This document shows positions 2,979-45,947 of a stretch of DNA of 45,947 bases, piece after piece. The notes under the pieces were generated by a model. It worked only from the letters and a program-made list of their open reading frames with translations. It did not search any database and was not told where the DNA came from. The translations under genes were made by a program, and so were the position numbers. The stretch is taken from sequence record OZ035778.1; one strand, given 5' to 3'. This DNA comes from Vectrevirus NIC06P3. Each line of letters begins with the position of its first letter. The stretch's first letter is position 1.

Positions 2979-3656
2979 GTGTTAGGTATTACAGGACAAC
3001 GAAGTGTAAGTCATCAAGCTAAGGTTGCCACGGAAGTGGCTCCTATCGTTGATATCTCAGATGTGTCTGACGTTAACTCTTATCTAAACCAAAAGTACCT
3101 ATCAGGTAAACAGGAAGGATATACTGTTCTGGCTAAGAAAGGTTCACGTTATTCATTGTATGCTGCAACAGGTTCTAAGCCAGAAGATAAGTGGTTGCCT
3201 TTAGAGCAAGCAACCTTACCTGATTCGAGTGCATTAGAGCTAATTGACACCATCGATGTTGAAGTTGCAAGTGCAAGCGACACAGTAGAGGTTAATGTAA
3301 CCAAAGAGAGGACTGTGTGCATCCAGACGCCTATGAAGGACTTAGCAGGTGATACAGTTTACCGGCAAGAATTGACTGCCAACATTAACCTTACCATTAA
3401 TGAAAACGGAAGCCCAAGCGATACGGTTAAATTAAACATATCAATTCCTAATTTGCCAGGAACATCTAGTGGGTCTTACTATACAGTTGACAATGTGCTG
3501 TGTACTTCTTTTGGAGACGACAGTCCTGTTATTGCCAATATAGATGTCGATAAGGCTACCACTAACTTGATTGCTGTTACACTTCGTAAAGAGACGGCAA
3601 CAGATATTAAGCTGTCTCTTGTAATTAGGTGGTCAATGCCAGTGGAGGTTGTATAA
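2979..3656 (+). CDS. hypothetical protein, paralog family member 3 with C-terminal extension
   Basis: Motif YLSGKQEGYTVL ... EDKWLP; start uncertain (GTG 2979 or TTG 2949); stop overlaps the endolysin ATG (TAATG). Confidence 0.45.
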   Translation: MLGITGQRSVSHQAKVATEVAPIVDISDVSDVNSYLNQKYLSGKQEGYTVLAKKGSRYSLYAATGSKPEDKWLPLEQATLPDSSALELIDTIDVEVASASDTVEVNVTKERTVCIQTPMKDLAGDTVYRQELTANINLTINENGSPSDTVKLNISIPNLPGTSSGSYYTVDNVLCTSFGDDSPVIANIDVDKATTNLIAVTLRKETATDIKLSLVIRWSMPVEVV

Positions 3657-4000
3657 TGCTTAACAAATACTTCAAGCGTAAAGAGTTTGCTTGCCGTTGT
3701 GGGTGCGGCACATCTACTGTTGATGCTGAGTTACTACAGGTAATCACAGATGTGCGTGAGCACTTTGGTTCTCCTGTAGTTATCACTTCTGGGCATCGCT
3801 GCGCCAAGCACAATGCTAATGTAGGTGGAGCTAAAAACTCCATGCATCTTACTGGTAAGGCTGCTGACATTAAGGTACGAGGCATCTTACCATCTGAAGT
3901 GCATAAGTATCTTACTGATAAGTACCAAGGCAAATATGGGATTGGTAAGTACAACTCCTTCACCCACATTGATGTACGGGATGGGTGTGCACGATGGTAG
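3656..4000 (+). CDS. endolysin, peptidase M15-type zinc peptidase
   Basis: KEFACRCGCG ... SGHRC.KHN ... SMHLTGKAAD motif set typical of M15 endolysins; RBS GGAGG at 3644-3648. Confidence 0.75.
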   Translation: MLNKYFKRKEFACRCGCGTSTVDAELLQVITDVREHFGSPVVITSGHRCAKHNANVGGAKNSMHLTGKAADIKVRGILPSEVHKYLTDKYQGKYGIGKYNSFTHIDVRDGCARW

Positions 4001-4597: not shown

Positions 4598-4669
4598 ATA
4601 GAGCGGCGATCGTTTGGTCGCCCTTTACTCAAGGTGCTCATGGTGGGCGCTTTAAGTAAAGGAGGAAAC

Positions 4670-5923
4670 ATGGCTCTAACGAGGCTTAGTTCTGATTTAG
4701 TCCGTGACGCAAAAGATGGTGGCACGTTGGGAGAGTGCCTACACGGATTTATGTCATTCTCTCAAGCAAAAGAAATAACAGGCTCTGATCAAGCTGCAAT
4801 GGAGTACCTCTTCTCTAACGCAAAAGTTATCTACATCAACGAGTCTTTGACACTAACAGAGAAGATAACCACAGACAGAAGTTCCGAGGTTACGGTACTT
4901 ACAAAGCCAGGTGTTGTAATAAATAACCTAGGATACATGCCAACAACAAGAACAAACCCCAATCACGTGGTTTCTGGTTTGTCTGTTAGAAACAAATTCA
5001 AACAAGATAATCAGTCTATTAATGGCAGGGTTTATAGTAAGCAAGCTGCATCATTTGAAGCAGCGGTTCATGATGCTGTTAGCAACGGTGGTACTTCTTC
5101 ATCTGAAAACTTTGTTGCACTTTATTCTGGGATAGAGTTCTTTAATTCCACGCTGCAAAGAGGTTGGGCCTTCAACTCTGTAACCAACTGCCATGGTATG
5201 AATACCGGAGATGAGATGTATGGTTATGAGTTGGACTTCAACGTAGATGGCAACCTAGATGGTGGCGGTCAAGCAGTTGGCTTGTACATTGCAGGTATTG
5301 GTGATTTGCGTCAGTGTGCAAACTCTGATGGCATTCGTGTACAACGGACACGTGACCTTGGTGGATTGTATAAGTGGAACCATGGTATTCGAGTTTTTGA
5401 CTCTATGACAGGCCTTGCCGTGATAGATTCAGCTACATATTCCATATTCGCACAAGGTTCTGCCCCTATAGTAAGGCGTAAGGCTGTGCAGGATGGAGGT
5501 TGGAGCTACATCCATAGTCTTAGCCCTACTAATATAACTTGGGGTGTTGATGATTATGGCTACACTTACTCGCCTCGTCTGTATCTTGGGTCTGGTTCTG
5601 GTAAGTCTAAGAACAGGGTTAATCTAGAAGGTGGTGTTTCATTTTACACCACTAACAAACCTGTTGGTTGGGGTGACATTGCTGCTGGGGCTTCTGTAAC
5701 TAAAAACTTCACAGAGTTGTTTGGTCTTGAAGAAGGCGACTACTCTAAGGCGGTGTTTACTGTAGGTGAGTTCCGTGTGGCTAACTCTTACGGAAGTTTG
5801 TTTGTCACTGTCTACACTAACTCAGCAAAAACTCAGGGGTATGTTAAGGTTACTAACCTAGGCTCAACTACTGTAACAGGCGTTGGGATAGGGATCAACC
5901 TGTCAATCCAAAAGGCGGGATAA
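4670..5923 (+). CDS. tailspike / receptor-binding protein 1
   Basis: 418-aa ORF with its own promoter, RBS AAAGGAGGAAAC, MALT N-terminus and leader shared with the next tailspike; Gly/Ser/Thr-rich beta-type composition. Specificity unknown. Confidence 0.55.
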   Translation: MALTRLSSDLVRDAKDGGTLGECLHGFMSFSQAKEITGSDQAAMEYLFSNAKVIYINESLTLTEKITTDRSSEVTVLTKPGVVINNLGYMPTTRTNPNHVVSGLSVRNKFKQDNQSINGRVYSKQAASFEAAVHDAVSNGGTSSSENFVALYSGIEFFNSTLQRGWAFNSVTNCHGMNTGDEMYGYELDFNVDGNLDGGGQAVGLYIAGIGDLRQCANSDGIRVQRTRDLGGLYKWNHGIRVFDSMTGLAVIDSATYSIFAQGSAPIVRRKAVQDGGWSYIHSLSPTNITWGVDDYGYTYSPRLYLGSGSGKSKNRVNLEGGVSFYTTNKPVGWGDIAAGASVTKNFTELFGLEEGDYSKAVFTVGEFRVANSYGSLFVTVYTNSAKTQGYVKVTNLGSTTVTGVGIGINLSIQKAG

Positions 5924-6011
5924 TAGGTATGTGCGGCGTAAGCCGCACTTTACGCGAACTTTCTTTCTTCATAGGCACTCATGGTGGGTGTCTATAAACA
6001 AAGGAGGTTAC

Positions 6012-8006
6012 ATGGCTTTAACCAAAGCTACAACAGTTAATGCATATCAGGGGCGTCCACCCGTTGTAATCACTGATAGCGTCGAAGATAAGTTAATGGA
6101 TGGACGTGCTGGTCTTCGTAAGCACTTTGGTGCTGTTGGGGACGGGCAACATGATGATACAGACGCCTTTGAAAAATGGATGGATTGCCTAACAGATGCA
6201 ACATATAAGCGTTTAGGGGCATTTTCGGACGAACACCCATATATGCTACAGAAAGGGCCACAGCTCATGTTAGAAGATGGGGCTTTCGTGTATGCTGGCA
6301 AAGGTTTGAACATCCCTACCCATCATGCCTTTGTTCTAAACATAATTGGACAAAGTTCCTTATCTACAAAAATTATCCTACCAGAAGATGTGTACTTCTT
6401 GGATTTAGATAACAACCCTGTGTTTTCTTATATGTCAGGTATTACGTTCCATGGTGGACTAGGTGCTGTACGCATGAAGTCTAAGTCATGCAATGCAACA
6501 AGTATGCACATATTTGAGCGTCTACGTATGTCTAGGTATAAGCAGTGTGCCTTTAGTAACAACTCAATAGATATGCCTTACGTTAAAATCAGAGACTCAG
6601 TGTTTATGGGAGATGTATCCAGAGAGACAATTGGACTGTGCTTATCTGGCCTGTCTGCTGGTAGTGATATCACAGGGAATCAGTTCACTGATAACAGGTA
6701 TAATCTCAAGTTAGCTGTTGCAGACAATGGTGTAGAACGTAATGGACCACCAACGCCTCTAAACATAGTAGGTAATGATTTCTATCGGACAGGACACCGC
6801 TCAGGTGCATCTTATGATATTTGGATTGAACCAGGTAAAACAGCTACAAACTCAGGACGGGGACTTGTTTTACAACGTAATAAGTTTGGGCAGGAGAACC
6901 TAAAGAGTCCAGATGCACACATTCTCATTGCAGATAGTGGGACAGGGCAAGGTGGTGATTTAAATGGGGACAGAATGCATGTAGAGACAAAATCTTCTGG
7001 ATTTGTGTCAGGCATTCTTTCAGAAGGCAACAATGTTAACTCTATCAATGGAAGTTACACTGCACCATACATCCGTAGCTTCACACCTAACTTTGGTAAC
7101 AATAAGATCCATGATATTTATGACAATGGAATGCCGTCTCGTATAGTAGAGTTCGCAGGTGGTATTACGCAAAGTGAAGTGGTTAATATATCTCGCACTA
7201 ATATGCTTGAGATTGATCAGTCTCTTGCCCTCCAGAAAGGGGATGTACCTAATTTATTGTCTAACCTAGATGGTGTGTTTCGTGTAAGGGATGATTTGGG
7301 TCTGTTGGCAGGACACCCTCAAGTGCACGACACACCAACCGGTTCTCAGATGTCAGATTTTCTGCATGTATATAAAGGACCAACATCTAGTCTTGCTGTT
7401 GCAGAAGCAACGCGCTTGGCTATTGATAACTCCTATGGAGGTAAAAATGAGGCAGCAGAGTTCACTATGACAACGGAAGATGGACGTGCAGTTGCAACGG
7501 TGACAGGGCTTGTTGCTGGTGATACTTTCTGGTTAGATTTTGAGGTAAAGAGATCTGCTGACAATGCGGCCCCTCGTGTGCTCTTCGAGGTACTAGATTC
7601 AAGTGCGAGTACCTTACTTCTTCGAAGGACTATACTGTTAGATGCGAAGCAGAGATGGCAGAAAGTTGTGCTACCTTTTGTGCCAAACAGTTCTGGTAGT
7701 ATCTTTGTTCGCTTTAAGGCGAAAGGTTGGACACCTTCTAATAAGAAGTTTCAAGTAGGAAACCTTAATGTATACCGCAACCATACACCAGTTAACACTG
7801 GACATAATGGAGGTTTATCTTCCTCTTGGAGTTCACAGCACATCCTTATTGGGTCTTACCACTTATGGGTAGATGCAACTGGCGCATTGCGTATCAAAGA
7901 TGGCGCACCTACGTCTGTTAACGATGGTGTCATCGTTGGCAGTCAGTCAGAAAGTGTTAGCCAACAAGTATCGGGTGATGGTATACAAACCATTGATAGT
8001 GTCTAA
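6012..8006 (+). CDS. tailspike 2, pectate-lyase-like beta-helix (probable polysaccharide depolymerase)
   Basis: HFGAVGDGQHDDTDAFEKW motif typical of right-handed beta-helix tailspikes; RBS AAAGGAGG; MALT N-terminus. Confidence 0.65.
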   Translation: MALTKATTVNAYQGRPPVVITDSVEDKLMDGRAGLRKHFGAVGDGQHDDTDAFEKWMDCLTDATYKRLGAFSDEHPYMLQKGPQLMLEDGAFVYAGKGLNIPTHHAFVLNIIGQSSLSTKIILPEDVYFLDLDNNPVFSYMSGITFHGGLGAVRMKSKSCNATSMHIFERLRMSRYKQCAFSNNSIDMPYVKIRDSVFMGDVSRETIGLCLSGLSAGSDITGNQFTDNRYNLKLAVADNGVERNGPPTPLNIVGNDFYRTGHRSGASYDIWIEPGKTATNSGRGLVLQRNKFGQENLKSPDAHILIADSGTGQGGDLNGDRMHVETKSSGFVSGILSEGNNVNSINGSYTAPYIRSFTPNFGNNKIHDIYDNGMPSRIVEFAGGITQSEVVNISRTNMLEIDQSLALQKGDVPNLLSNLDGVFRVRDDLGLLAGHPQVHDTPTGSQMSDFLHVYKGPTSSLAVAEATRLAIDNSYGGKNEAAEFTMTTEDGRAVATVTGLVAGDTFWLDFEVKRSADNAAPRVLFEVLDSSASTLLLRRTILLDAKQRWQKVVLPFVPNSSGSIFVRFKAKGWTPSNKKFQVGNLNVYRNHTPVNTGHNGGLSSSWSSQHILIGSYHLWVDATGALRIKDGAPTSVNDGVIVGSQSESVSQQVSGDGIQTIDSV

Positions 8007-34624: not shown

Positions 34625-35362
34625 ATGCCTGTAATTAGACAAACAAGTAAAGTAGGCAACCTGATGGAAGGTGTTGCCTTCCAGATTATTGATAGTAAAC
34701 TTGAAGCGGTCAACTTATGTATGCGAGCTATTGGTCGTGAGGGTGTGGATTCTCTCGACTCAGGGGATCTCGATGCAGAAGATGCAAGCAAGATGATTGA
34801 TATCGTGTCCCAGCGATTCCAGTACAATAAGGGTGGTGGTTGGTGGTTCAACCGCGAACCTAACTGGCAACTTGCACCAGACACCAACGGTGAGGTTAAC
34901 CTCCCTAATAACTGCCTTGCTGTATTGCAATGTTATGCTTTAGGTGAGAAGAAAGTACCCATGACTATGCGTGCAGGTAAATTGTACTCTACTTGGAGTC
35001 ACACCTTTGATATGCGCAAGCATGTTAATGCAAATGGTATGCTGCGACTTACCTTACTTACACTACTCCCTTATGAGCACCTCCCTACAAGTGTAATGCA
35101 AGCAATTGCATATCAAGCTGCGGCAGAGTTTATTGTATCTAAGGATGCAGACAAAACTAAACTGACTACAGCACAGCAGATTGCGACCCAGCTTCTTATG
35201 GATGTGCAGTCTGAACAAATGTCGCAGAAGAGGTTGAACATGCTAGTACATAACCCGACGCAGCGACAGTTTGGCATCATGGCTGGTGGCTCTCAGAATG
35301 TACCTGCTTACTCTCATTCACCTTATGATAGTTGGGCGCTCCGTCCGTGGGAGGACCGTTAA
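34625..35362 (+). CDS. tail tubular protein A (T7 gp11-like)
   Basis: RBS AGGAGG; size and gene order; stop overlaps next start (TAATG). Confidence 0.8.
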   Translation: MPVIRQTSKVGNLMEGVAFQIIDSKLEAVNLCMRAIGREGVDSLDSGDLDAEDASKMIDIVSQRFQYNKGGGWWFNREPNWQLAPDTNGEVNLPNNCLAVLQCYALGEKKVPMTMRAGKLYSTWSHTFDMRKHVNANGMLRLTLLTLLPYEHLPTSVMQAIAYQAAAEFIVSKDADKTKLTTAQQIATQLLMDVQSEQMSQKRLNMLVHNPTQRQFGIMAGGSQNVPAYSHSPYDSWALRPWEDR

Positions 35363-37764
35363 TGGAAGTACAAGGTTCATTAGGTAGACAAATCCAAGGG
35401 ATTAGCCAGCAGCCGCCAGCGGTACGCTTGGATGGTCAGTGCACAGCTATGGTTAATATGATACCTGATGTAGTGAATGGCACTCAATCCCGCATGGGTA
35501 CAACTCATATTGCAAAGTTACTTGATGCGGGGACTGATGATATGGCCACACACCATTATCGCAGAGGTGATGGTGATGAAGAGTATTTCTTCACATTGAA
35601 GAAAGGACAAGTCCCTGAGATATTCGATAAGTATGGGCGCAAATGTAATGTGACCTCACAAGATGCACCTATGACTTATTTGGCTGAGGTGATAAACCCA
35701 AGAGAAGATGTGCAATTTATGACGATAGCTGATGTTACTTTCATGCTTAACCGCAGGAAGGTAGTTAAAGCTAGTAACAGAAAGTCACCCAAAGTTGGAA
35801 ACAAAGCCATTGTGTTTTGTGCATATGGTCAATACGGTACATCTTATTCCATTATAATTAATGGTGTCAACGCTGCTAGTTTTAAAACACCAGATGGTGG
35901 AAGCGCAGAGCAGGTTGAACAAATTCGAACGGAACATATCACTTCGGAATTGTACTCTAAGTTGCAGCAATGGAGTGGAGTTGGTGATTATGAAATACAA
36001 AGAGACGGTACAAGTATATTTATAGAAAGACGTGATGGTGCAAGTTTTACAGTAACAACCACCGATGGTGCAAAGGGGAAAGACTTAGTGGCTATCAAGA
36101 ATAAGGTCAGCTCTACCGACCTCCTTCCTTCTCGTGCACCTGAAGGTTATAAGGTGCAAGTATGGCCTACTGGAAGCAAACCCGAGTCTCGTTATTGGTT
36201 GGAAGCAGAGCCAAAAGAGGGTAACTTAGTATCTTGGCAAGAGACGGTTGCTGCTGACGTATTGCTTGGTTTTGATAAAGGCACTATGCCTTATATCATT
36301 GAGCGTACGGGCATTATCGATGGTATTGCTCAATTTAAGATTAGGCAAGGCGATTGGGAAGATCGCAAGGTAGGTGATGACCTCACTAACCCTATGCCGT
36401 CTTTCATTGATGAAGAAGTACCTCAGACAATTGGCGGGATGTTCATGGTGCAGAACCGTTTATGCTTTACAGCAGGTGAGGCAGTCATTGCATCTCGTAC
36501 TTCCTACTTCTTTGACTTCTTTCGTTACACAGTGATCTCAGCTTTAGCTACTGACCCGTTTGACATCTTCTCAGATGCGAGTGAAGTTTACCAATTGAAA
36601 CATGCAGTGACTTTAGACGGTGCTACTGTGCTGTTCTCTGATAAATCTCAATTTATCTTGCCTGGAGATAAGCCTCTGGAGAAATCTAATGCCTTACTCA
36701 AACCTGTAACTACATTTGAGGTGAACAACAAAGTTAAGCCAGTTGCCACTGGTGAATCCGTAATGTTCGCTACAAACGATGGAGCATACTCTGGTGTACG
36801 AGAGTTCTATACAGACTCTTATAGTGATACTAAGAAGGCACAGGCAATCACAAGCCATGTGAATAAACTCATCGAAGGTAACATTATTAACATGGCAGCA
36901 AGCACTAATGTCAACCGCCTGCTTGTCACCACTGATAAGTATCATAATATAATTTACTGCTATGATTGGTTATGGCAGGGAACAGAACGTGTTCAATCAG
37001 CTTGGCACGTGTGGAAGTGGCCTTTGGGTACAAAGGTGAGAGGTATGTTTTATTCTGGTGAATTACTTTACCTGCTTCTGGAGCGAGGCAATGGTGTATA
37101 TCTGGAGAAGATGGATATGGGAGATGCACTGACCTATGGTTTAAATGACCGTATCCGAATGGACAGGCAGGCAGAGTTAACCTTCAAGCATTTCAAAGCA
37201 GAAGATGAGTGGGTATCTGAACCACTCCCTTGGGTTCCTACTAACCCAGAACTCTTGGATTGCATCTTAATAGAAGGCTGGGATTCATATATTGGCGGCT
37301 CTTTCTTATTCAAGTACAACCCCGGTGATAACACCTTATCTACAACTTTTGATATGTATGATGATAACCACGTAAAAGCAAAGGTCATTGTTGGTCAGAT
37401 TTACCCTCAAGAGTTTGAACCTACACCTGTGGTTATCAGAGACAATCAAGACCGTGTATCCTATATTGATGTACCAGTTGTTGGATTGGTCCACCTTAAC
37501 CTCGACATGTACCCTGATTTCTCCGTAGAAGTTAAGAACATTAAGAGTGGTAAAGTACGTAGAGTGTTAGCATCAAACCGCATAGGTGGTGCTCTAAACA
37601 ATACGGTAGGTTATGTTGAACCAAGAGAAGGTGTCTTCAGATTTCCACTGAGAGCTAAGAGTACGGATGTTGTTTATAGTATTATTGTAGAGTCACCTCA
37701 CACATTCCAGCTTCGTGATATTGAGTGGGAAGGAAGCTACAATCCAACCAAAAGGAGGGTCTAA
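35362..37764 (+). CDS. tail tubular protein B (T7 gp12-like)
   Basis: About 800 aa; gene order after tail tube A. Confidence 0.8.
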   Translation: MEVQGSLGRQIQGISQQPPAVRLDGQCTAMVNMIPDVVNGTQSRMGTTHIAKLLDAGTDDMATHHYRRGDGDEEYFFTLKKGQVPEIFDKYGRKCNVTSQDAPMTYLAEVINPREDVQFMTIADVTFMLNRRKVVKASNRKSPKVGNKAIVFCAYGQYGTSYSIIINGVNAASFKTPDGGSAEQVEQIRTEHITSELYSKLQQWSGVGDYEIQRDGTSIFIERRDGASFTVTTTDGAKGKDLVAIKNKVSSTDLLPSRAPEGYKVQVWPTGSKPESRYWLEAEPKEGNLVSWQETVAADVLLGFDKGTMPYIIERTGIIDGIAQFKIRQGDWEDRKVGDDLTNPMPSFIDEEVPQTIGGMFMVQNRLCFTAGEAVIASRTSYFFDFFRYTVISALATDPFDIFSDASEVYQLKHAVTLDGATVLFSDKSQFILPGDKPLEKSNALLKPVTTFEVNNKVKPVATGESVMFATNDGAYSGVREFYTDSYSDTKKAQAITSHVNKLIEGNIINMAASTNVNRLLVTTDKYHNIIYCYDWLWQGTERVQSAWHVWKWPLGTKVRGMFYSGELLYLLLERGNGVYLEKMDMGDALTYGLNDRIRMDRQAELTFKHFKAEDEWVSEPLPWVPTNPELLDCILIEGWDSYIGGSFLFKYNPGDNTLSTTFDMYDDNHVKAKVIVGQIYPQEFEPTPVVIRDNQDRVSYIDVPVVGLVHLNLDMYPDFSVEVKNIKSGKVRRVLASNRIGGALNNTVGYVEPREGVFRFPLRAKSTDVVYSIIVESPHTFQLRDIEWEGSYNPTKRRV

Positions 37765-38492
37765 TGGCTATAGGTTCAGCCGTTATGTCTGGTATGTCCT
37801 CTCTGGGTAGTATGTTTGCAGGTAGCGGTGCAGCAGCCGCTGCAGGTGGTACTGCCGCCGCAGCAGGTGGTGGAGGTTTACTAGGTTCCGTGGGAAGTTT
37901 CCTAAGTGGTTCCACTGGTGGCTTCTCCAATACAGGCTTGCTTAGTGCAGGTATGCAAGGTCTTGGTCTTCTAGGTAATCTTTTTGGTGGAAGTGATGAA
38001 GCCAAAGCTATGAAGAAAGCTCAGGAGGAGCAATGGCGGCAGCAGTTAATTGCTACACAAGAGGCATACAAAACGGTAGCAGATGCAGAACGCTCTGCTG
38101 CTAAACAGTACCATGCAGACGCAATAAGCAATCAGGCTTCACTACTACAGCAGCGAGCACAGGTTGCATTACTTGCAGGTGCTACGGGAACTGGTGGTAA
38201 CTCTGTGTCTTCTATGCTGAATGATTTGGCAGCAGAGGGAGGGAGGAATCAGAGTACAATTATTGATAACTATGAGAATCAGAAGATTAATTTCACCAAC
38301 CAGCTTAAGTCCATTCAACGTGGTGGACAGATGCAGATGCGTGAGTTTAGGAAACCTTCTGCCGTAAGTACCTTGGTTCAAGGTATTCCAAGTCTTGCAT
38401 CTGCCTATGTAATGGGTAGCAAGTCTGGTACGGCATTAGGTAAAGCCTTAACTGATTCTCGTACATATTCATCTGGAACAAGAGGTATTTAA
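37764..38492 (+). CDS. internal virion protein (Gly/Ala-rich N-terminus)
   Basis: RBS AAAGGAGGG; first of three internal core genes by order. Confidence 0.6.
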   Translation: MAIGSAVMSGMSSLGSMFAGSGAAAAAGGTAAAAGGGGLLGSVGSFLSGSTGGFSNTGLLSAGMQGLGLLGNLFGGSDEAKAMKKAQEEQWRQQLIATQEAYKTVADAERSAAKQYHADAISNQASLLQQRAQVALLAGATGTGGNSVSSMLNDLAAEGGRNQSTIIDNYENQKINFTNQLKSIQRGGQMQMREFRKPSAVSTLVQGIPSLASAYVMGSKSGTALGKALTDSRTYSSGTRGI

Positions 38493-41440
38493 TGGCAATT
38501 GAGCGACAAGCAGTACAAGGTCTGCCACAAGTGCAGGCCACTTCTCCTAATGTCATGACCTTTGCACCTCAGCAAGTTGGAGGTGTGGAGACTGGCGTAG
38601 CTTCTACCTCCGGTAGTCGATTTATCGAAGACCTTATTCGAGCAGCCAGCAGTGTAGCTGATGTAACTACTGGTATCCTTAATCAAAAGATTGAGGAAGA
38701 TAAGGTTGTTCAAATGGAAAGGGCATATAATGGATTAATGCCTTCTGAGGATGCAACTCGTGGTGGCGCTCGTGCTAACATGCTTGTCAAAGCTCAACTG
38801 CTGGCTAATGATGAAGCAGCACGAATGAAAGACATGGCTACTCGTTTCCAAGGAACGGATGACGAGTGGACGCAACTCATGGTCGATTCTCGTAATGAGA
38901 TGCAGAATAAGCTGTTCCAGCAATACCCAGAGTTGCAAGGTGACAAAGATACAATGCGTATGGTCACTAACGTATTTCAGGAACAGCAGCCTCAGATTTG
39001 GGCCACACGTACCCAGCACAAACTGGACCGTGAACAGGCAGACCGTGAAGATACCTTTGACGGGCGAGTAGCTTCTACTTGGGACTCTAGTATTGACCCT
39101 GAAGCCTCTGGTTATGCTTTACAGGAACGAATCCGAGAAGGTCTGACGCAAGGTTTACTGCCTGAGCAGATGCACAAGAAGCTGGTAGAGCGAGCCATCT
39201 CGCTTGCTCAAGGCGGTGACATTAGTATGGCTGAAGCCTTGAAGTATGTGAAAGATGATAAAGGTGTTTCTGTCTATGCTAAGAACCCCCAGCTTATCAC
39301 AGCTATCACTAATGGTAATGCAGTTTGGGCTAGGAATAATGTTGCTGATGTAACGCGTATGTCTTTTGAAGTCAAAGAGTCTTACCTTGCAGGTGACTTG
39401 ACTGATGAAGAATTACTTGAGCGAGCACAGCACATTAATAGCCTGACAGGGAACTCTGTCTTCTCTAATCCAGAACTAGAAGCATTGATGCGCCAACGAG
39501 CTAAGCAGAATGCAGAGCTAGGTGCAATGCAGGATATGCGACGTGAACTTTACTCTGATCGTATGATTGGTCTTCAAGGTAAGTCGGATAAAGAAAAGAA
39601 AGCCTACGTTGATCTTATCAAACAAGATAGTCAACTCTACATAGACCAGCAAATCAAGCAGCGAGGAGTAGACCCTTACAGCCAAGAGGCCGAAGCTATA
39701 CGTGGTGCAGTAGAAGTACAGCGCCTGCAATTCATGAACTCCAAAGGTTTAGTGGATGATACCTTTGAATCTCGTATCAAGGCTATGGAATCCATGCTAT
39801 CACCTGAGCACTTTGCTAAAGGTGAACCACAGGAGTTAATGACCATTCGTCAGTTGTGGGAGCAGTTACCCGAAGAAAGTCGAGGTGTCTTTGGTGACAC
39901 TGTGAACAGCTATATGGATAACTACAATACTGCATTGCAAATGGGTGAAACACCTTTGCAGGCTGCAAGGTTTGCCCGTGAAGCACAGCAGAAATTCTCT
40001 CGTACCGAGAAAGAGACTAAGAAGTTCAACTCAGCTATTGGAGATGCATTGGATGAAGTATCTGGTGCTGGCTGGTTCGACGGTAAGACAGAAGTGTCTG
40101 ACTTAGGTAAAGCTATTGCAGAAGAAGAACTACGGGCTAAGGCCAATATGTTGTGGTCTAGCGGCATGCGTAACATGGATTCCATCAAGAAGGCTTTAAT
40201 TACTTGGGGCAACAAACGCTACACTCAATCAGAGGATGCAAAGACTTCCGGTGGCTATTTCATTAAAGGCGATTACACTTCTGCATCTGACATGCTTATG
40301 TCAGTTGGGAAAGGTGTAAACCCTACCGATGTACCTCTGGCACTTGGTAGGTATGTAGAAACACAGATGCCAGAATTGAAGAAGGAACTTCAAGAGTGGG
40401 AAACTAAAGATGATATATACATTGATTACAATGAACAGAAAGGTACTTTCGTGATTCGTGCTGGTGCAGCAGGTCGCCCTCTTTCTGGAGTAATCCCTGT
40501 AACCTCTTTAGATACCACTTCACTACTAGATTCTGCCTATCAGAAGAAAGTAGAGGAACGAGATAAAGGCGAGTACGTTCACCCGTATCGTACAGATATT
40601 GGTGCACAAGAGCCTATGCCAGCTAAACCAACTGCCAAAGATATTGGTAAATTTGGACTAGCTAACTTCCTCATGTCTTCTGCTTTTGCTTCTGGTGAGA
40701 ATCTACCTTCTAACTTCGAGATTAACTATCGAGGCAATATGCAACAATTCTATGACAAGCTAGCTATGGATGAGAATAAAGATAAAGTTGGCTTTAATAA
40801 GGCAACTGGAACCTTTACTCCATATAAAGACGCTCACGGTGAGTCTATCGGTTACGGTCATTTCTTAACAGAAGAAGAGAAGCGAAACGGGTATATTAAG
40901 ATTGGCGATGAACTAGTTCCCTATCGAGGGTCTATGTCTCAGCTTACAGAGAGTAAGGCTCGCGCTCTTATGGAGCAAGATGCCAAGAAGCATGTGCCCC
41001 CTACTCGTGACTGGAAGATTCCGTTTGAGCAGATGCACCCTGCACAGCAACGTGGTTTGATGGATTTAACCTACAACCTAGGTAAAGGTGGAATCCAAAA
41101 TGCACCACGTGCTCTTGCTGCATTCAAGGCGGGTAAACTTACTGAAGGCTTTATCGAAATGCTTGGTACTGCATCAAGTGAAGGTAAGCGTATTCCCGGC
41201 TTACTGAAGCGACGTGCTGAGGCTTACAACATGGCATCTGCTGGAGGTGTTCCTAAGATTACCGAAGTAGAAACTCGTGAGGATGGCTCTATGTGGGTTA
41301 AGTTTGGCGGTCCTATGCCAGCAGGCTCTGTCTCTGCGTGGACCCATAAGCGTATTGGTGCGGATGGCTGGTATCAAGTTTATGAGGCTGCACCTACCAA
41401 GTTAGCTAAAGGCTCTAAAGTAGGTAAAGTTAAGTTGTAG
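38492..41440 (+). CDS. internal virion protein with C-terminal T4-lysozyme-like (GH24) domain
   Basis: 982 aa; TFTPYKDAHGESIGYGHFLT and QRGLMDLTYNLGKGG parallel the T4 lysozyme YKDTEGYYTIGIGHLLT and INMVFQMGETG segments. Confidence 0.75.
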   Translation: MAIERQAVQGLPQVQATSPNVMTFAPQQVGGVETGVASTSGSRFIEDLIRAASSVADVTTGILNQKIEEDKVVQMERAYNGLMPSEDATRGGARANMLVKAQLLANDEAARMKDMATRFQGTDDEWTQLMVDSRNEMQNKLFQQYPELQGDKDTMRMVTNVFQEQQPQIWATRTQHKLDREQADREDTFDGRVASTWDSSIDPEASGYALQERIREGLTQGLLPEQMHKKLVERAISLAQGGDISMAEALKYVKDDKGVSVYAKNPQLITAITNGNAVWARNNVADVTRMSFEVKESYLAGDLTDEELLERAQHINSLTGNSVFSNPELEALMRQRAKQNAELGAMQDMRRELYSDRMIGLQGKSDKEKKAYVDLIKQDSQLYIDQQIKQRGVDPYSQEAEAIRGAVEVQRLQFMNSKGLVDDTFESRIKAMESMLSPEHFAKGEPQELMTIRQLWEQLPEESRGVFGDTVNSYMDNYNTALQMGETPLQAARFAREAQQKFSRTEKETKKFNSAIGDALDEVSGAGWFDGKTEVSDLGKAIAEEELRAKANMLWSSGMRNMDSIKKALITWGNKRYTQSEDAKTSGGYFIKGDYTSASDMLMSVGKGVNPTDVPLALGRYVETQMPELKKELQEWETKDDIYIDYNEQKGTFVIRAGAAGRPLSGVIPVTSLDTTSLLDSAYQKKVEERDKGEYVHPYRTDIGAQEPMPAKPTAKDIGKFGLANFLMSSAFASGENLPSNFEINYRGNMQQFYDKLAMDENKDKVGFNKATGTFTPYKDAHGESIGYGHFLTEEEKRNGYIKIGDELVPYRGSMSQLTESKARALMEQDAKKHVPPTRDWKIPFEQMHPAQQRGLMDLTYNLGKGGIQNAPRALAAFKAGKLTEGFIEMLGTASSEGKRIPGLLKRRAEAYNMASAGGVPKITEVETREDGSMWVKFGGPMPAGSVSAWTHKRIGADGWYQVYEAAPTKLAKGSKVGKVKL

Positions 41441-41504: not shown

Positions 41505-44500
41505 ATGGAACAAGATATTAAGACTAATTGGGCTGGATATGTCCAGTCTACTCCTGAGCCGTTTTCTATTGAGGCGGCTCCGGTATCGGCTCCTACGATA
41601 CGCCAGCGTAATGAGTTACAAGAGCAAGTTCTTGAAGCTAAAGCGGACGCGGATATCTTAGGGGCCGTAGGTGCTGCCTTCCAGAATGAGTGGTTGGCAT
41701 TCGGAGGTAAGAGGTGGTATGACCGTGCCACTGCTGATTTCCCACCTCAGCCTGACTTTGAAATCCAGCCAGATCGACGTGAAGCACTCCGCTTCAAATA
41801 TGGCACAGATATGATGCAGAAAATCACAGAAGGGGTCAGATCCGAGGATGAGCTAAACTTCCGTATTCAGAATGCAGATGATGACCTTGAGCGTAACAAA
41901 CGTATCGCTCAGGCAGGCTGGGTAGGATCTGTGGCAACGATTGGCGCTGCTGTGCTTGACCCTGTGGGATGGGTTGCCTCTATCCCAACTGGCGGTGCAG
42001 CTAAGGTTGGACTTGTAGGGCGTGCTGTACGTGGTGCTGTCGCTGCTGGTGTGAGTAATGCCGCTATTGAGTCCGTATTAGTCCAAGGCGACATGACCCG
42101 TGATTTAGATGACATTATGGTAGCACTAGGATCAGGTATGGCTATGGGTGGCGTCATTGGCGCTGTAGCGCGTGGTAGGGCCACTAAGCTCAGTGAGCAA
42201 GGGGATGACAGAGCGGCAAGCGTTGTGCGCAGTGCAGATGCAGGGGACCGCTATGTTCGTGCCGTTGCCGATGACAGCATCGGTGCGATGCGTGTTAAGG
42301 GCGCAGAGGTTCTCACTGAGGGTGCATTCGATATCTCCAGCAAAGGTGAAGATTTACTGAAAACCTTGCAGCGAGAAGGTAATGCGATTGATATGACACC
42401 TCGCCGCTGGGCTGGAACTATGTCTGCCCTTGGTACTGTCGTTCATTCGTCTCAGGATGCAAGTGTGCGTGGCCTAGGTGCTCGCCTGTTTGAGTCTCCG
42501 CAAGGCTTAGGTATGCAGAAGGCATCGGCTAGTCTCATGCAGAATACTAACTTGAATCGTCTGAAATCTGCGGATATGAACCGTTTCAATGATGGGTTCG
42601 ATTTATGGCTCAAAGAGAATAATATCAATCCGGTTGCAGGTCATACTAACTCTCACTATGTGCAGCAATATAATGAGAAGGTATGGGAAGCTGTACGCAT
42701 CGGTATGGATGAGTCTACGCCTAAGTCTATCCGTATGGCAGCAGAGGGGCAGCAAGCTATGTATCGTGAAGCATTAGCATTACGTCAACGCTCTGGTGAA
42801 GCTGGGTTTGAAAAGGTTAAAGCAGATGATAAGTACATGCCTGATATTTTTGACAGCATGAAGGCTCGTCGTCAATTCGGTATGCACGATAAAGAGGACA
42901 TCATTGAGCTATTCTCTCGTGCATACCAGAATGGTTCTCGTAAGGTTCCAAAGGAAGTGGCTGATGAGATTGCACGTGCACAAGTAAACCGTGTTGTGGA
43001 TGCCACTCTGACAGGACGTATGAGTTTCGAAAAGGCTATGTCTGGTCAAACTAAAGCAGAGTATGAAGCAATAATGCGCAAGGCAGGCTTCAGTGATGAA
43101 GAAATTGAAAAGATGGTAGAAGCTCTGGATAATAAAGAAACCAGAGATAATATCTCTAACCGAGCTAAGATGAGTTTAGGCTTAGATGTTACTCAAGAGT
43201 ACAAAGGCATTCGTATGCGTGATTTTATGAATACTAACGTGGAAGAGTTAACAGATAACTACATGAAGGAAGCGGCAGGTGGTGCTGCATTGGCTCGTCA
43301 AGGTTTCTCTACCTATCAGGCTGCACTTAATGCAATTGACCTTGTAGAGCGAAATGCACGAAATGCAGCTAAAGATACAAAAGCACACGCACAATTTGAA
43401 GCGGAGTCTGCTAAGATTCGTCAATCAGAGCCTGATTACAAGAAGGCACAAGAGCAGATTGAAGAGTTAAAGAAGCGACTTAAATTGAAAGAGAAAGATG
43501 AAGCAGCAGGTCTGGCTATTGATGAAGAAATACGTCAGATGCGAGAAGGGCTTCGCTTGATTATGGGTAAATCTATCGATGCAGACCCACAAGCCTTGTC
43601 TACTAAAATGCTGCGTCGTGGTCGTGACATCACAGGTGTACTTCGTTTAGGTCAGATGGGCTTCGCACAGCTAGGTGAACTTGCTAACTTCATGGGTGAG
43701 TTTGGTATTGCTGCAACCACTATAGCTTTAGGTAAGCAATTCCGCTTCACCTCTAAGGCTTTGCGTAATGGCGATGGCTTCTTCCGAGATAAGAACTTGG
43801 CAGAAGTAGAGCGAATGGTAGGCTACATTGGTGAGGATAACTGGTTAACAACCAAGGGTGCACGCCCCGATGAGTTTGGTGATGTAACCACAGTGCGAGG
43901 GATGATGGCTCACTTTGACCAATCCATGAACTCAATACGCCGTGCTCAGACAAACCTATCACTCTTCCGCATGGCTCAAGGTTCTCTGGAGCGAATGACT
44001 AATAGGCAAATAGCCCTATCTTTCATCGACCACCTTGAAGGTAAGAAGGTTATTCCTCAGAAGAAACTGGAGGAACTTGGTCTTACTCAAGAGTTCATGT
44101 CTAGTCTACAGAAGCACTACGATGCTAATTCTAAGGGTTCTGGTCTGCTTGGCTTCGATACCATGCCTTATGCAATGGGTGAGACTTTAGCTAATGCTAT
44201 CCGTCGTAAGTCTGGTTTAATCATTCAGCGTAACTTCATTGGTGATGAAGGTATCTGGATGAACAAAGCACTAGGTAAGACGTTTGCACAGCTTAAGTCA
44301 TTCTCTCTGGTATCTGGTGAGAAGCAATTCGGCCGAGGTATCCGGCATGATAAGATCGGTCTAGCTAAGAAGACAGCCTTTGGCTTTGCTTTGGGTTCAA
44401 TGGTGTATGCAGCGAAAGCCTATGTGAACTCTATCGGACGAGAAGACCAAGATGAATATCTGGAAGAGAAGTTATCGCCTAAAGGGTTAGCCTTTGGTGC

Positions 44501-44813
44501 AATGGGCATGATGAGTACAACTGCTGTATTTAGCCTAGGTGGAGATTTCTTAGGGGGCTTAGGTGTTTTACCTTCCGAACTCATTCAATCACGTTATGAA
44601 GCGGGTTTCCAAAGCAAAGGACTGATTGACCAGATACCGCTAGTTGGCGTTGGTGCAGATGCAGTTAATCTGGCTAACTCAATTAAGAAGTATGCAGAAG
44701 GTGACACAGAAGGCGTAGATATTGCTAGGCGAGCACTACGTCTTGTGCCACTTACCAATGTAATAGGTGTCCAGAACGCATTGCGTTATGGCTTAGATGA
44801 ACTGGAGGACTGA
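41505..44813 (+). CDS. large internal virion/core protein (T7 gp16-like)
   Basis: 1102 aa; last of three consecutive internal-protein genes before the tail-fibre adaptor. Confidence 0.7.
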   Translation: MEQDIKTNWAGYVQSTPEPFSIEAAPVSAPTIRQRNELQEQVLEAKADADILGAVGAAFQNEWLAFGGKRWYDRATADFPPQPDFEIQPDRREALRFKYGTDMMQKITEGVRSEDELNFRIQNADDDLERNKRIAQAGWVGSVATIGAAVLDPVGWVASIPTGGAAKVGLVGRAVRGAVAAGVSNAAIESVLVQGDMTRDLDDIMVALGSGMAMGGVIGAVARGRATKLSEQGDDRAASVVRSADAGDRYVRAVADDSIGAMRVKGAEVLTEGAFDISSKGEDLLKTLQREGNAIDMTPRRWAGTMSALGTVVHSSQDASVRGLGARLFESPQGLGMQKASASLMQNTNLNRLKSADMNRFNDGFDLWLKENNINPVAGHTNSHYVQQYNEKVWEAVRIGMDESTPKSIRMAAEGQQAMYREALALRQRSGEAGFEKVKADDKYMPDIFDSMKARRQFGMHDKEDIIELFSRAYQNGSRKVPKEVADEIARAQVNRVVDATLTGRMSFEKAMSGQTKAEYEAIMRKAGFSDEEIEKMVEALDNKETRDNISNRAKMSLGLDVTQEYKGIRMRDFMNTNVEELTDNYMKEAAGGAALARQGFSTYQAALNAIDLVERNARNAAKDTKAHAQFEAESAKIRQSEPDYKKAQEQIEELKKRLKLKEKDEAAGLAIDEEIRQMREGLRLIMGKSIDADPQALSTKMLRRGRDITGVLRLGQMGFAQLGELANFMGEFGIAATTIALGKQFRFTSKALRNGDGFFRDKNLAEVERMVGYIGEDNWLTTKGARPDEFGDVTTVRGMMAHFDQSMNSIRRAQTNLSLFRMAQGSLERMTNRQIALSFIDHLEGKKVIPQKKLEELGLTQEFMSSLQKHYDANSKGSGLLGFDTMPYAMGETLANAIRRKSGLIIQRNFIGDEGIWMNKALGKTFAQLKSFSLVSGEKQFGRGIRHDKIGLAKKTAFGFALGSMVYAAKAYVNSIGREDQDEYLEEKLSPKGLAFGAMGMMSTTAVFSLGGDFLGGLGVLPSELIQSRYEAGFQSKGLIDQIPLVGVGADAVNLANSIKKYAEGDTEGVDIARRALRLVPLTNVIGVQNALRYGLDELED

Positions 44814-45787
44814 TGGGTTATACTTTCACAGAACACACAGCCAACGGTACGCAAGTGACTTATCCTTTTAGGTTTGCTGGTAGGGATAAGGGTTATCTTC
44901 GTGCCTCAGATGTAAGAGTGGATACTCTTCAAGGGGAGACTTGGACCAAGGTCACATCTGGCTGGCAATTAACTGGTACAAACCAGATTACTTTTGATGT
45001 AGCACCAGCAGCAGGTTTGAGGATCCGTATTCGAAGGGAAGTGCCAAAAGAAAACCCATATGCAGAGTTTGACCGTGGTGTCACCCTTGATATGAAATCT
45101 TTGAATGGTTCCTTTATTCACAACCTAGAGGCAACCCAAGAGCTTCTAGATGGGTTTTACCCTGAAGGTTATTATATCAAGCAAAATGTATCATGGGGTG
45201 GTAATAAGATCACTGACCTTGCAGATGGCACAGCACCGAATGATGCAGTGAATAAAGGACAGATGGACGCCCTTGATAAGAAACACACAGACTGGAATAA
45301 GACGCAAGATGAGCAGATTGATGGTATCATTCGTAGCTTCGTCAGTAACATATCTCACCGTTCTGCACCTTGGACTTATTTAGCTGTGGGTGGTGAAGAT
45401 AAGGTAAAACCTCCTTTCGTCTTCCGAGCAGCACTAGTGTGGCGCGATGGTGTATATCAGGATGAGCAAGCTGGTGCTTTTGAAATTAGAGATAATACTA
45501 TATTTCTAGCTAAGCCTTTGCTTAGAAAAGGCGAGCGCGTGTCTGTTCTCCTTGGTTCTCGTGTAGCAGTACCAGACAAAGGTGAGGTTCTCCAGCTTGA
45601 GTTCAACACAGTGGCAGGCTATACGGAGATAAATCTAGGTATGCGTGTATCAGAGGTGTCTGTCTTTCTTGATGGGCTTCTCCAATCTCTAGGCTCTTAC
45701 GAACTTATAGATGACAATAAGTTGGTATTTAGTGAGCCACTACCAGATTGCACCGTGCTGGTTCAAGTTAAATCTGATACAAAGTAG
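44813..45787 (+). CDS. tail-fibre-like adaptor protein (homolog of the T7 gp17 N-terminal domain)
   Basis: TYPFRFAGRDKGYLRASDV and GNKITDLADGTAPNDAVNKGQMDAL parallel the T7 gp17 N-terminal segments; 324 aa with no long fibre shaft. Confidence 0.7.
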   Translation: MGYTFTEHTANGTQVTYPFRFAGRDKGYLRASDVRVDTLQGETWTKVTSGWQLTGTNQITFDVAPAAGLRIRIRREVPKENPYAEFDRGVTLDMKSLNGSFIHNLEATQELLDGFYPEGYYIKQNVSWGGNKITDLADGTAPNDAVNKGQMDALDKKHTDWNKTQDEQIDGIIRSFVSNISHRSAPWTYLAVGGEDKVKPPFVFRAALVWRDGVYQDEQAGAFEIRDNTIFLAKPLLRKGERVSVLLGSRVAVPDKGEVLQLEFNTVAGYTEINLGMRVSEVSVFLDGLLQSLGSYELIDDNKLVFSEPLPDCTVLVQVKSDTK

Positions 45788-45798
45788 GAGGTGTATTT

Positions 45799-45947
45799 GT
45801 GGTAGACTCAGATATCATCAATGATACGCTGAAGTGGGTTCCGGGTGGTATCGTAACCAGTACAACCCTCTTAGGTATCAGTTGGGAAAACTGGGTTTAC
45901 ATCTTAACCGCAATCTATACTATGTTGCAGATTGGGGAATGGGTATG
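45799..45947 (+). CDS. holin-like membrane protein, 3'-truncated by the window edge
   Basis: GTG start after RBS AGGAGG; hydrophobic segments; frame stays open to the last base and, if joined to position 1, continues to a TAA at 44-46. Confidence 0.45.
   Translation, partial: MVDSDIINDTLKWVPGGIVTSTTLLGISWENWVYILTAIYTMLQIGEWV

Follow-up and report, generated by a model that had tools for sequence, protein, structure and literature searches.

A GH24 lysozyme domain near the C-terminus of the gp15-position internal virion protein of Vectrevirus NIC06P3

The sequence of Vectrevirus NIC06P3 (OZ035778.1), a stretch of 45,947 nucleotides that was analyzed as a whole and is called the window here, is the genome of a K1E/K1-5-like podovirus belonging to Vectrevirus (Autographiviridae). 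On its plus strand, at 38492..41440, lies an open reading frame (ORF) for an internal virion (ejection) protein of 982 amino acids (aa) and 109.4 kDa (calculated), orthologous to K1E gp35 and K1-5 YP_654136.1. The protein was found to be 97.6% identical in amino acid sequence to K1E gp35 (YP_425013.1) and 97.7% identical to the K1-5 protein, and its gene showed 93% DNA identity to 64 Vectrevirus/K1E/K1-5-type records. It matched PHROG 4290, "lysozyme domain-containing protein", from end to end (aa 1-982 against profile positions 1-969), and RefSeq uses the same product name for the K1E, K1-5, and SP6 orthologues. GenBank names for the orthologous group vary and include "baseplate hub", "putative endolysin", "hypothetical protein", and "lysozyme domain-containing protein".

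From its N-terminus, the protein consists of a body of about 750 residues (38492..40750, plus strand), a GH24 / T4-lysozyme-like muramidase domain at approximately aa 754-917 (40751..41242, plus strand), and a C-terminal module of 65 residues (aa 918-982; 41243..41437, plus strand). The body is acidic, with an isoelectric point (pI) of 5.0 and a mass of 83 kDa for aa 1-746, and is kept among homologues of about 900-990 aa; by synteny, it occupies the place of T7 gp15. The lysozyme-like part is basic (pI 9.3 for aa 747-917). When the C-terminal 236 residues were used as a tblastn query (E<=1e-5), 165 phage records were matched, with hosts including Escherichia, Klebsiella, Salmonella, Proteus, Erwinia, and Vibrio. 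No Pseudomonas phage was among these matches, and the phiKMV-type proteins are much more distant.

Several sequence searches identified the domain. PF00959 (Phage_lysozyme) matched aa 776-910 with E=7.8e-10 and 39.6 bits, above the curated cut-off of 22.3 bits, and this was the sole Pfam match in the 982-aa protein. A phmmer comparison with all PDB sequences returned T4 lysozyme (T4L) alone (aa 777-890, E=0.0018), and BLASTP against wild-type T4L gave 22% identity across 117 residues (E=6e-7); the T4L sequence used for BLASTP was consistent with the PDB matches. An exhaustive HMMER search, which covered 1.84 billion representative proteins, detected 287 relatives with E<=1e-3. When a domain-family profile of 153 sequences (the query and 152 relatives) was compared with T4L by hhalign, aa 754-899 were aligned with T4L 4-144 at 98.5% probability and E=2.7e-15. 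A 29-sequence profile matched 568 distinct sequences in the PDB, and the best 60 of these 568 were all lysozymes or endolysins of the T4L type. Among the matches listed for this search, the best was 6et6 (E=1.6e-23), and T4 gp5, P22 lysozyme, and T4L were also found. The best 60 matches listed for a search of the PDB with a full-length profile were lysozymes only. The match to the T4L type is far beyond chance.

Structure prediction gave the same picture once enough relatives had been aligned. A homologue search with the single sequence yielded 2 proteins only, from 379 candidates, and an AlphaFold2 model from three sequences was poor in the catalytic N-lobe, with a predicted local distance difference test score (pLDDT) of 69 overall and below 50 for the first 51 residues. 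Foldseek returned only weak T4L matches for this model (E~0.009). It was superseded by a model from a 94-sequence alignment obtained by the profile search, which had a mean pLDDT of 94.7, a predicted template modeling score of 0.88, and the two-lobed fold of T4L. The top 50 Foldseek matches of this second model were all GH24 lysozymes or T4L fusion constructs. The protein thus carries a GH24/T4-lysozyme-type domain near its C-terminus. An earlier note on this DNA had assigned 40770-41240, which is aa 760-916 of the 982-aa ORF, to a T4L-like domain in the last roughly 160 residues, and had suggested profile comparison and structure prediction as a check. The domain was borne out by Pfam, hhalign, and AlphaFold2, and a lysozyme fold was indeed predicted, but the placement needs correction: the domain ends at about aa 917, and another 65 residues follow it.

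Next, the residues expected in a GH24 active site were located, and equivalents of T4L Glu11, Asp20, and Thr26 were all found at the level of sequence. The predicted catalytic general acid is Glu761 (codon 40772..40774, plus strand), which hhalign paired with T4L Glu11. Its column in a MAFFT --auto alignment contained E in 145 of the 146 ungapped homologues, and the residue was invariant both in the 23 long homologues and in a MAFFT alignment with canonical endolysins. Asp780 (40829..40831, plus strand) is the predicted equivalent of T4L Asp20, as Y778-K779-D780 matched T4L Y18-K19-D20 in three alignments (phmmer, BLASTP, and MAFFT with the canonical endolysins); this aspartate is conserved in K1-5 and SP6. 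Ser785 (40844..40846, plus strand) corresponded to T4L Thr26 in the phmmer, BLASTP, and hhalign alignments, with the motif S785-I-G-Y-G-H set against T26-I-G-I-G-H, and its column in the homologues held T (68) or S (40). The whole triad region is shared without change by K1-5 and is also conserved in SP6. As read from these alignments, the putative Glu761-Asp780-Ser785 triad is intact.

Between the catalytic Glu and Asp, the domain also carries about 10 extra residues (aa 765-775; 40784..40816, plus strand). This insertion was seen in the MAFFT alignment relative to canonical GH24 endolysins and T4L and was counted as 9 residues in the hhalign alignment. Short strands were predicted within and just after it (model residues 22-23, 28-29, 32-34, and 37-39). 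In the wider family, the column equivalent to Asp20 held S in 64 sequences, a gap in 54, and D in just 12. Because this column is mostly serine or gap, some of these virion lysozymes may lack the second catalytic carboxylate.

The variability of the Asp20 column is also what could be said for a different chemistry, in which the domain would be a lytic transglycosylase forming 1,6-anhydro-N-acetylmuramic acid, like T7 gp16 and lambda R, and not a hydrolytic muramidase. The cited reviews are silent on whether the product chemistry was determined (PMC5380687). We consider transglycosylase chemistry very improbable. The full E / Y-K-D / S-I-G-x-G-H motif of the hydrolytic GH24 enzymes is retained, muramidases (P22, T4L, 6et6, and 8b2s) head the structural and profile matches, and the 982-aa protein had no SLT/GH23 match in Pfam. 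For a hydrolytic GH24 enzyme, the expected activity would be that of a muramidase on the beta-1,4 bond between N-acetylmuramic acid (MurNAc) and N-acetylglucosamine (GlcNAc), by analogy with the K1-5, SP6, and phiKMV proteins, for which it is listed second-hand.

The neighboring genes indicate which virion protein carries the domain. Upstream are a nozzle gene (35332..37764; Pfam PF25675) and a gene for an internal virion protein of the T7 gp14 family (37725..38492, plus strand; PF24072 T7_gp14, E=3e-32; PHROG 805), which is a homologue of K1E gp34 and whose true start may be an internal ATG. Downstream, at 41505..44813 on the plus strand, is a gene for a 1102-aa internal virion protein of the T7 gp16 family (PHROG 342). 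The order nozzle, gp14-like, 982-aa gene, gp16-like is the same in K1E and puts the 982-aa gene in the gp15 position. T7 gp14 is the outer-membrane component of the ejectosome, and T7 gp15 is the periplasmic tunnel protein.

The 1102-aa protein lacks the N-terminal SLT transglycosylase domain of its T7 counterpart. It matched PHROG 342 from profile position 162 to 1227 only, and BLASTP aligned its aa 922-1067 with T7 gp16 1100-1279 (E=7e-9); a second match to T7 gp16, of aa 89-574 with 275-794, was weak (E=0.069). The protein had no Pfam match at E<=0.01, and in the Pfam search the SLT domain (PF01464) was absent from both it and the 982-aa protein. T7 gp16 itself (NP_042004.1), used as a control, scored SLT at aa 15-127 with E=1.7e-31. 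Since the SLT domain was found in the T7 control and not on the gp16 homologue, the murein-cleaving module sits on the gp15-position protein. In SP6, the first 810 residues of gp37 likewise gave no Pfam match, although the record is annotated "with endolysin domain". The earlier note had suggested that a C-terminal GH24 domain takes the place of the N-terminal transglycosylase of T7 gp16. The missing SLT domain agrees with this, and the suggestion can be refined in two respects: the carrier is the gp15-position protein, and the domain lies short of the C-terminus.

Taken together, it is highly probable that the 982-aa protein is the middle ejection (core) protein and that its subterminal GH24 domain is a virion-associated peptidoglycan hydrolase acting at entry. 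The earlier proposal that an ejected core protein supplies the peptidoglycan-cutting activity at genome delivery is supported by the triad, the operon, and reports on orthologues. Table 2 of PMC5380687 lists K1-5 YP_654136.1 as a virion-associated lysozyme of 109 kDa, with reference to the work of Moak & Molineux 2004 on virion peptidoglycan hydrolases, and SP6 gp36 (107 kDa) and phiKMV gp36 as virion-associated lysins, with Lavigne 2004 and Briers 2006 cited too. The gp15-like gp35 of K1E and K1-5 has been stated to hold the lysozyme activity that T7 has on gp16 (PMC8954989). Presence of the NIC06P3 protein in the virion core and its ejection would follow from this statement and from orthology to the K1-5 and SP6 proteins. 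The C-terminus of SP6 gp36 was described as resembling lysozyme (PMC4837284), and internal virion proteins variably host tail lysozyme domains (PMC4819975).

A 2026 preprint (10.64898/2026.05.18.726046) provides the structural setting. Its authors resolved a T4L-like domain in a phiKMV-like phage, where it belongs to the gp15-like protein; their predicted tunnel assembly has the lysozyme domains pointing outward, level with the cell wall. Across 127 Autographivirales, the layout was at the gp16-like N-terminus in 86, at the gp15-like C-terminus in 31, and central in 10. Total ejectosome length was reported to be constrained to 2378 +/- 162 aa; the three ejection proteins in the window total about 2324-2339 aa, which is inside this range.

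By analogy with T7 and Ar-KM, entry might proceed as follows. After adsorption, the core proteins would exit the capsid through the portal-tail channel, and the gp14-like protein would make a pore in the outer membrane. The 982-aa protein would then build the periplasmic tunnel. Its lysozyme domains would come to lie level with the murein layer, cutting MurNAc-GlcNAc bonds locally. This local hydrolysis could therefore allow the tunnel and the gp16-like inner-membrane complex to reach the cytoplasmic membrane.

Several points weigh against this assignment. Activity and virion location for this exact sequence are taken from the K1-5 and SP6 orthologues, and the experimental evidence on these orthologues is second-hand, through reviews. 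One of the four alignments, that made with hhalign, shifts the insertion and places Lys770, and not Asp780, opposite T4L Asp20. The proposed tunnel role of the N-terminal body draws on gene order and on structures studied in other phages; compared with T7 gp15, the body gave an hhalign probability of 0.2% (23-sequence full-length profile). Also, aa 1-775 had no Pfam match. Sequence homology of this kind is usually undetectable (PMC4819975; 10.64898/2026.05.18.726046). Because homology to T7 gp15 is undetectable here, the equivalence is positional and functional only.

Another possible explanation is that the domain is the endolysin of the phage and acts from within at the end of infection, not at entry. 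One GenBank record names the orthologue "putative endolysin", PHROG places the family under "lysis", and GH24 domains are common as endolysins. However, the genome has lysis genes of its own. At 3656..3997 is a lysis endolysin of the Peptidase_M15_3 type (113-114 aa; Pfam E=3.7e-33) with 83% identity to K1E gp43, and a holin of the K1E gp44 type is also present in the window; K1E has a spanin gene as well. Furthermore, the lysozyme domain is fused to an 83-kDa body within the core-protein operon, and PMC5380687 counts the K1-5 orthologue among the virion-associated lysins. We therefore regard a role in lysis as very improbable. With an M15 endolysin in addition to the lysozyme domain of the ejection protein, the phage would degrade murein by two different chemistries, leaving the cell with a peptidase and entering it with a glycosidase.

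That the domain is a dead, structural, or peptidoglycan-binding relic, or that the protein acts as a T4 gp5-like "baseplate hub", has almost no likelihood in our view: several records do carry the hub annotation and the lysozyme domain of T4 gp5 is among the matches of the family profile (E~6e-12), but the catalytic Glu hardly varies at all, conservation is higher in the lysozyme domain than in the remainder of the protein, the K1-5 and SP6 orthologues are listed as active, and the phage is a podovirus (Autographiviridae) with the gene placed among internal-virion genes. The label is most simply a carry-over, due to the match to the T4 gp5 lysozyme domain. The "baseplate hub" and "endolysin" readings were both rejected.

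Comparison with known systems shows that a lysozyme in an entry protein of this kind is already known, both for the exact orthologous group and as a class. The closest relatives are K1-5 gp35 (YP_654136.1, locus tag EPKV1_gp38) and K1E gp35, which have the same 982-aa length and gene position and an identical catalytic region. About 2.3-2.4% of their residues differ, with no functional distinction, and the NIC06P3 protein is another isolate's allele. SP6 gp36 (AAP48775.1, Zindervirus, 978 aa) has the same architecture, with PF00959 at aa 770-905, the 65-aa module, and the E/D/S motif, and is described as a lysozyme-active internal head protein (PMC5380687). It shares 42.9% identity with the NIC06P3 protein over the full length; the lysozyme domains are 63.7% identical and the N-terminal bodies 36.7%.

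More distant counterparts share fewer of these features. phiKMV gp36 and Ar-KM gp42, from phiKMV-like Pseudomonas phages, are gp15-position ejection proteins of about 900 aa with a C-terminal T4L-like domain. The activity of phiKMV gp36 was shown biochemically (PMC5380687), and the lysozyme domain of Ar-KM gp42 is visible by cryo-electron microscopy and faces outward in the predicted tunnel (10.64898/2026.05.18.726046). Unlike the NIC06P3 protein, the phiKMV-type homologues stop right after the lysozyme domain, without the 65-residue module, and their Asp region reads PHKSxEGG in place of PYKD. T7 gp16 does the same job in the same machine, as a murein-cleaving domain on an ejected core protein (PMC8954989), but differs in its SLT/GH23 fold (PF01464), its transglycosylase chemistry, its gp16 carrier, and its location at the opposite terminus. 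T7 mutants affected in this transglycosylase reportedly require the domain only where murein is highly cross-linked (PMC8954989). T4L (gpe), the T4 gp5 domain, and the GH24 endolysins of P22, phage 21, and DLP12 have the same fold and catalytic motif as the NIC06P3 domain, with identities of about 17-24%. T4L and the P22, phage 21, and DLP12 enzymes are free endolysins, and the gp5 domain belongs to a myovirus tail spike. The NIC06P3 domain differs in its roughly 10-residue Glu-Asp insertion and in being joined to a long protein body.

The C-terminal module was predicted to form four strands and one short helix in the AlphaFold2 model, with block-mean pLDDT of 93-98 over aa 918-982. It had no match in a Pfam search and is 58.5% identical to the corresponding part of SP6 gp36. 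In the alignment, it is kept in SP6-like and K1E-like homologues and missing from phiKMV-type proteins and free endolysins. The Glu-Asp insertion (aa 765-775) likewise had no Pfam match, and no description of either element was found in the cited literature. It is conceivable, although we would not favor it, that module and insertion together make up a clade-specific regulatory or anchoring device. Such a device could be a murein-binding element, a tunnel-docking element, or a latch that silences the packed enzyme in the capsid.

The discovery value of these results is small, as the K1-5, K1E, and SP6 proteins are already annotated and the gp15-like C-terminal layout has already been counted in Autographivirales. 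For annotation, the protein is better named an internal virion/ejection protein with a GH24 lysozyme domain than a "baseplate hub", an "endolysin", or a "hypothetical protein". It also adds a further example of a murein-cleaving module that moves between ejection proteins while overall ejectosome length is preserved.

Elsewhere in the window, a K1E gp38-like holin ORF spans 45799-45947 and 1 to about 35, in frame across the two ends (...MLQIGEWVW at one end, continued by TRVIGWREKRERTQ and a stop at the other). The window appears to hold a complete, circularly permuted genome of about 45.9 kb. The tail-fiber/adaptor protein at 44813-45787 was just 61.6% identical to K1E gp37, compared to about 97% for the neighboring core proteins. 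Two probable tailspike ORFs were found at 4634-5923 (429 aa, no Pfam match) and 5931-8006 (691 aa, with only a faint pectate-lyase-like match). The adaptor and tailspike ORFs suggest that the receptor-specificity module has been swapped. Finally, the large terminase subunit at 326-2227 is one intact ORF of 633 aa; in K1E, it is divided into 40A and 40B, split by the homing-endonuclease gene 40.5.

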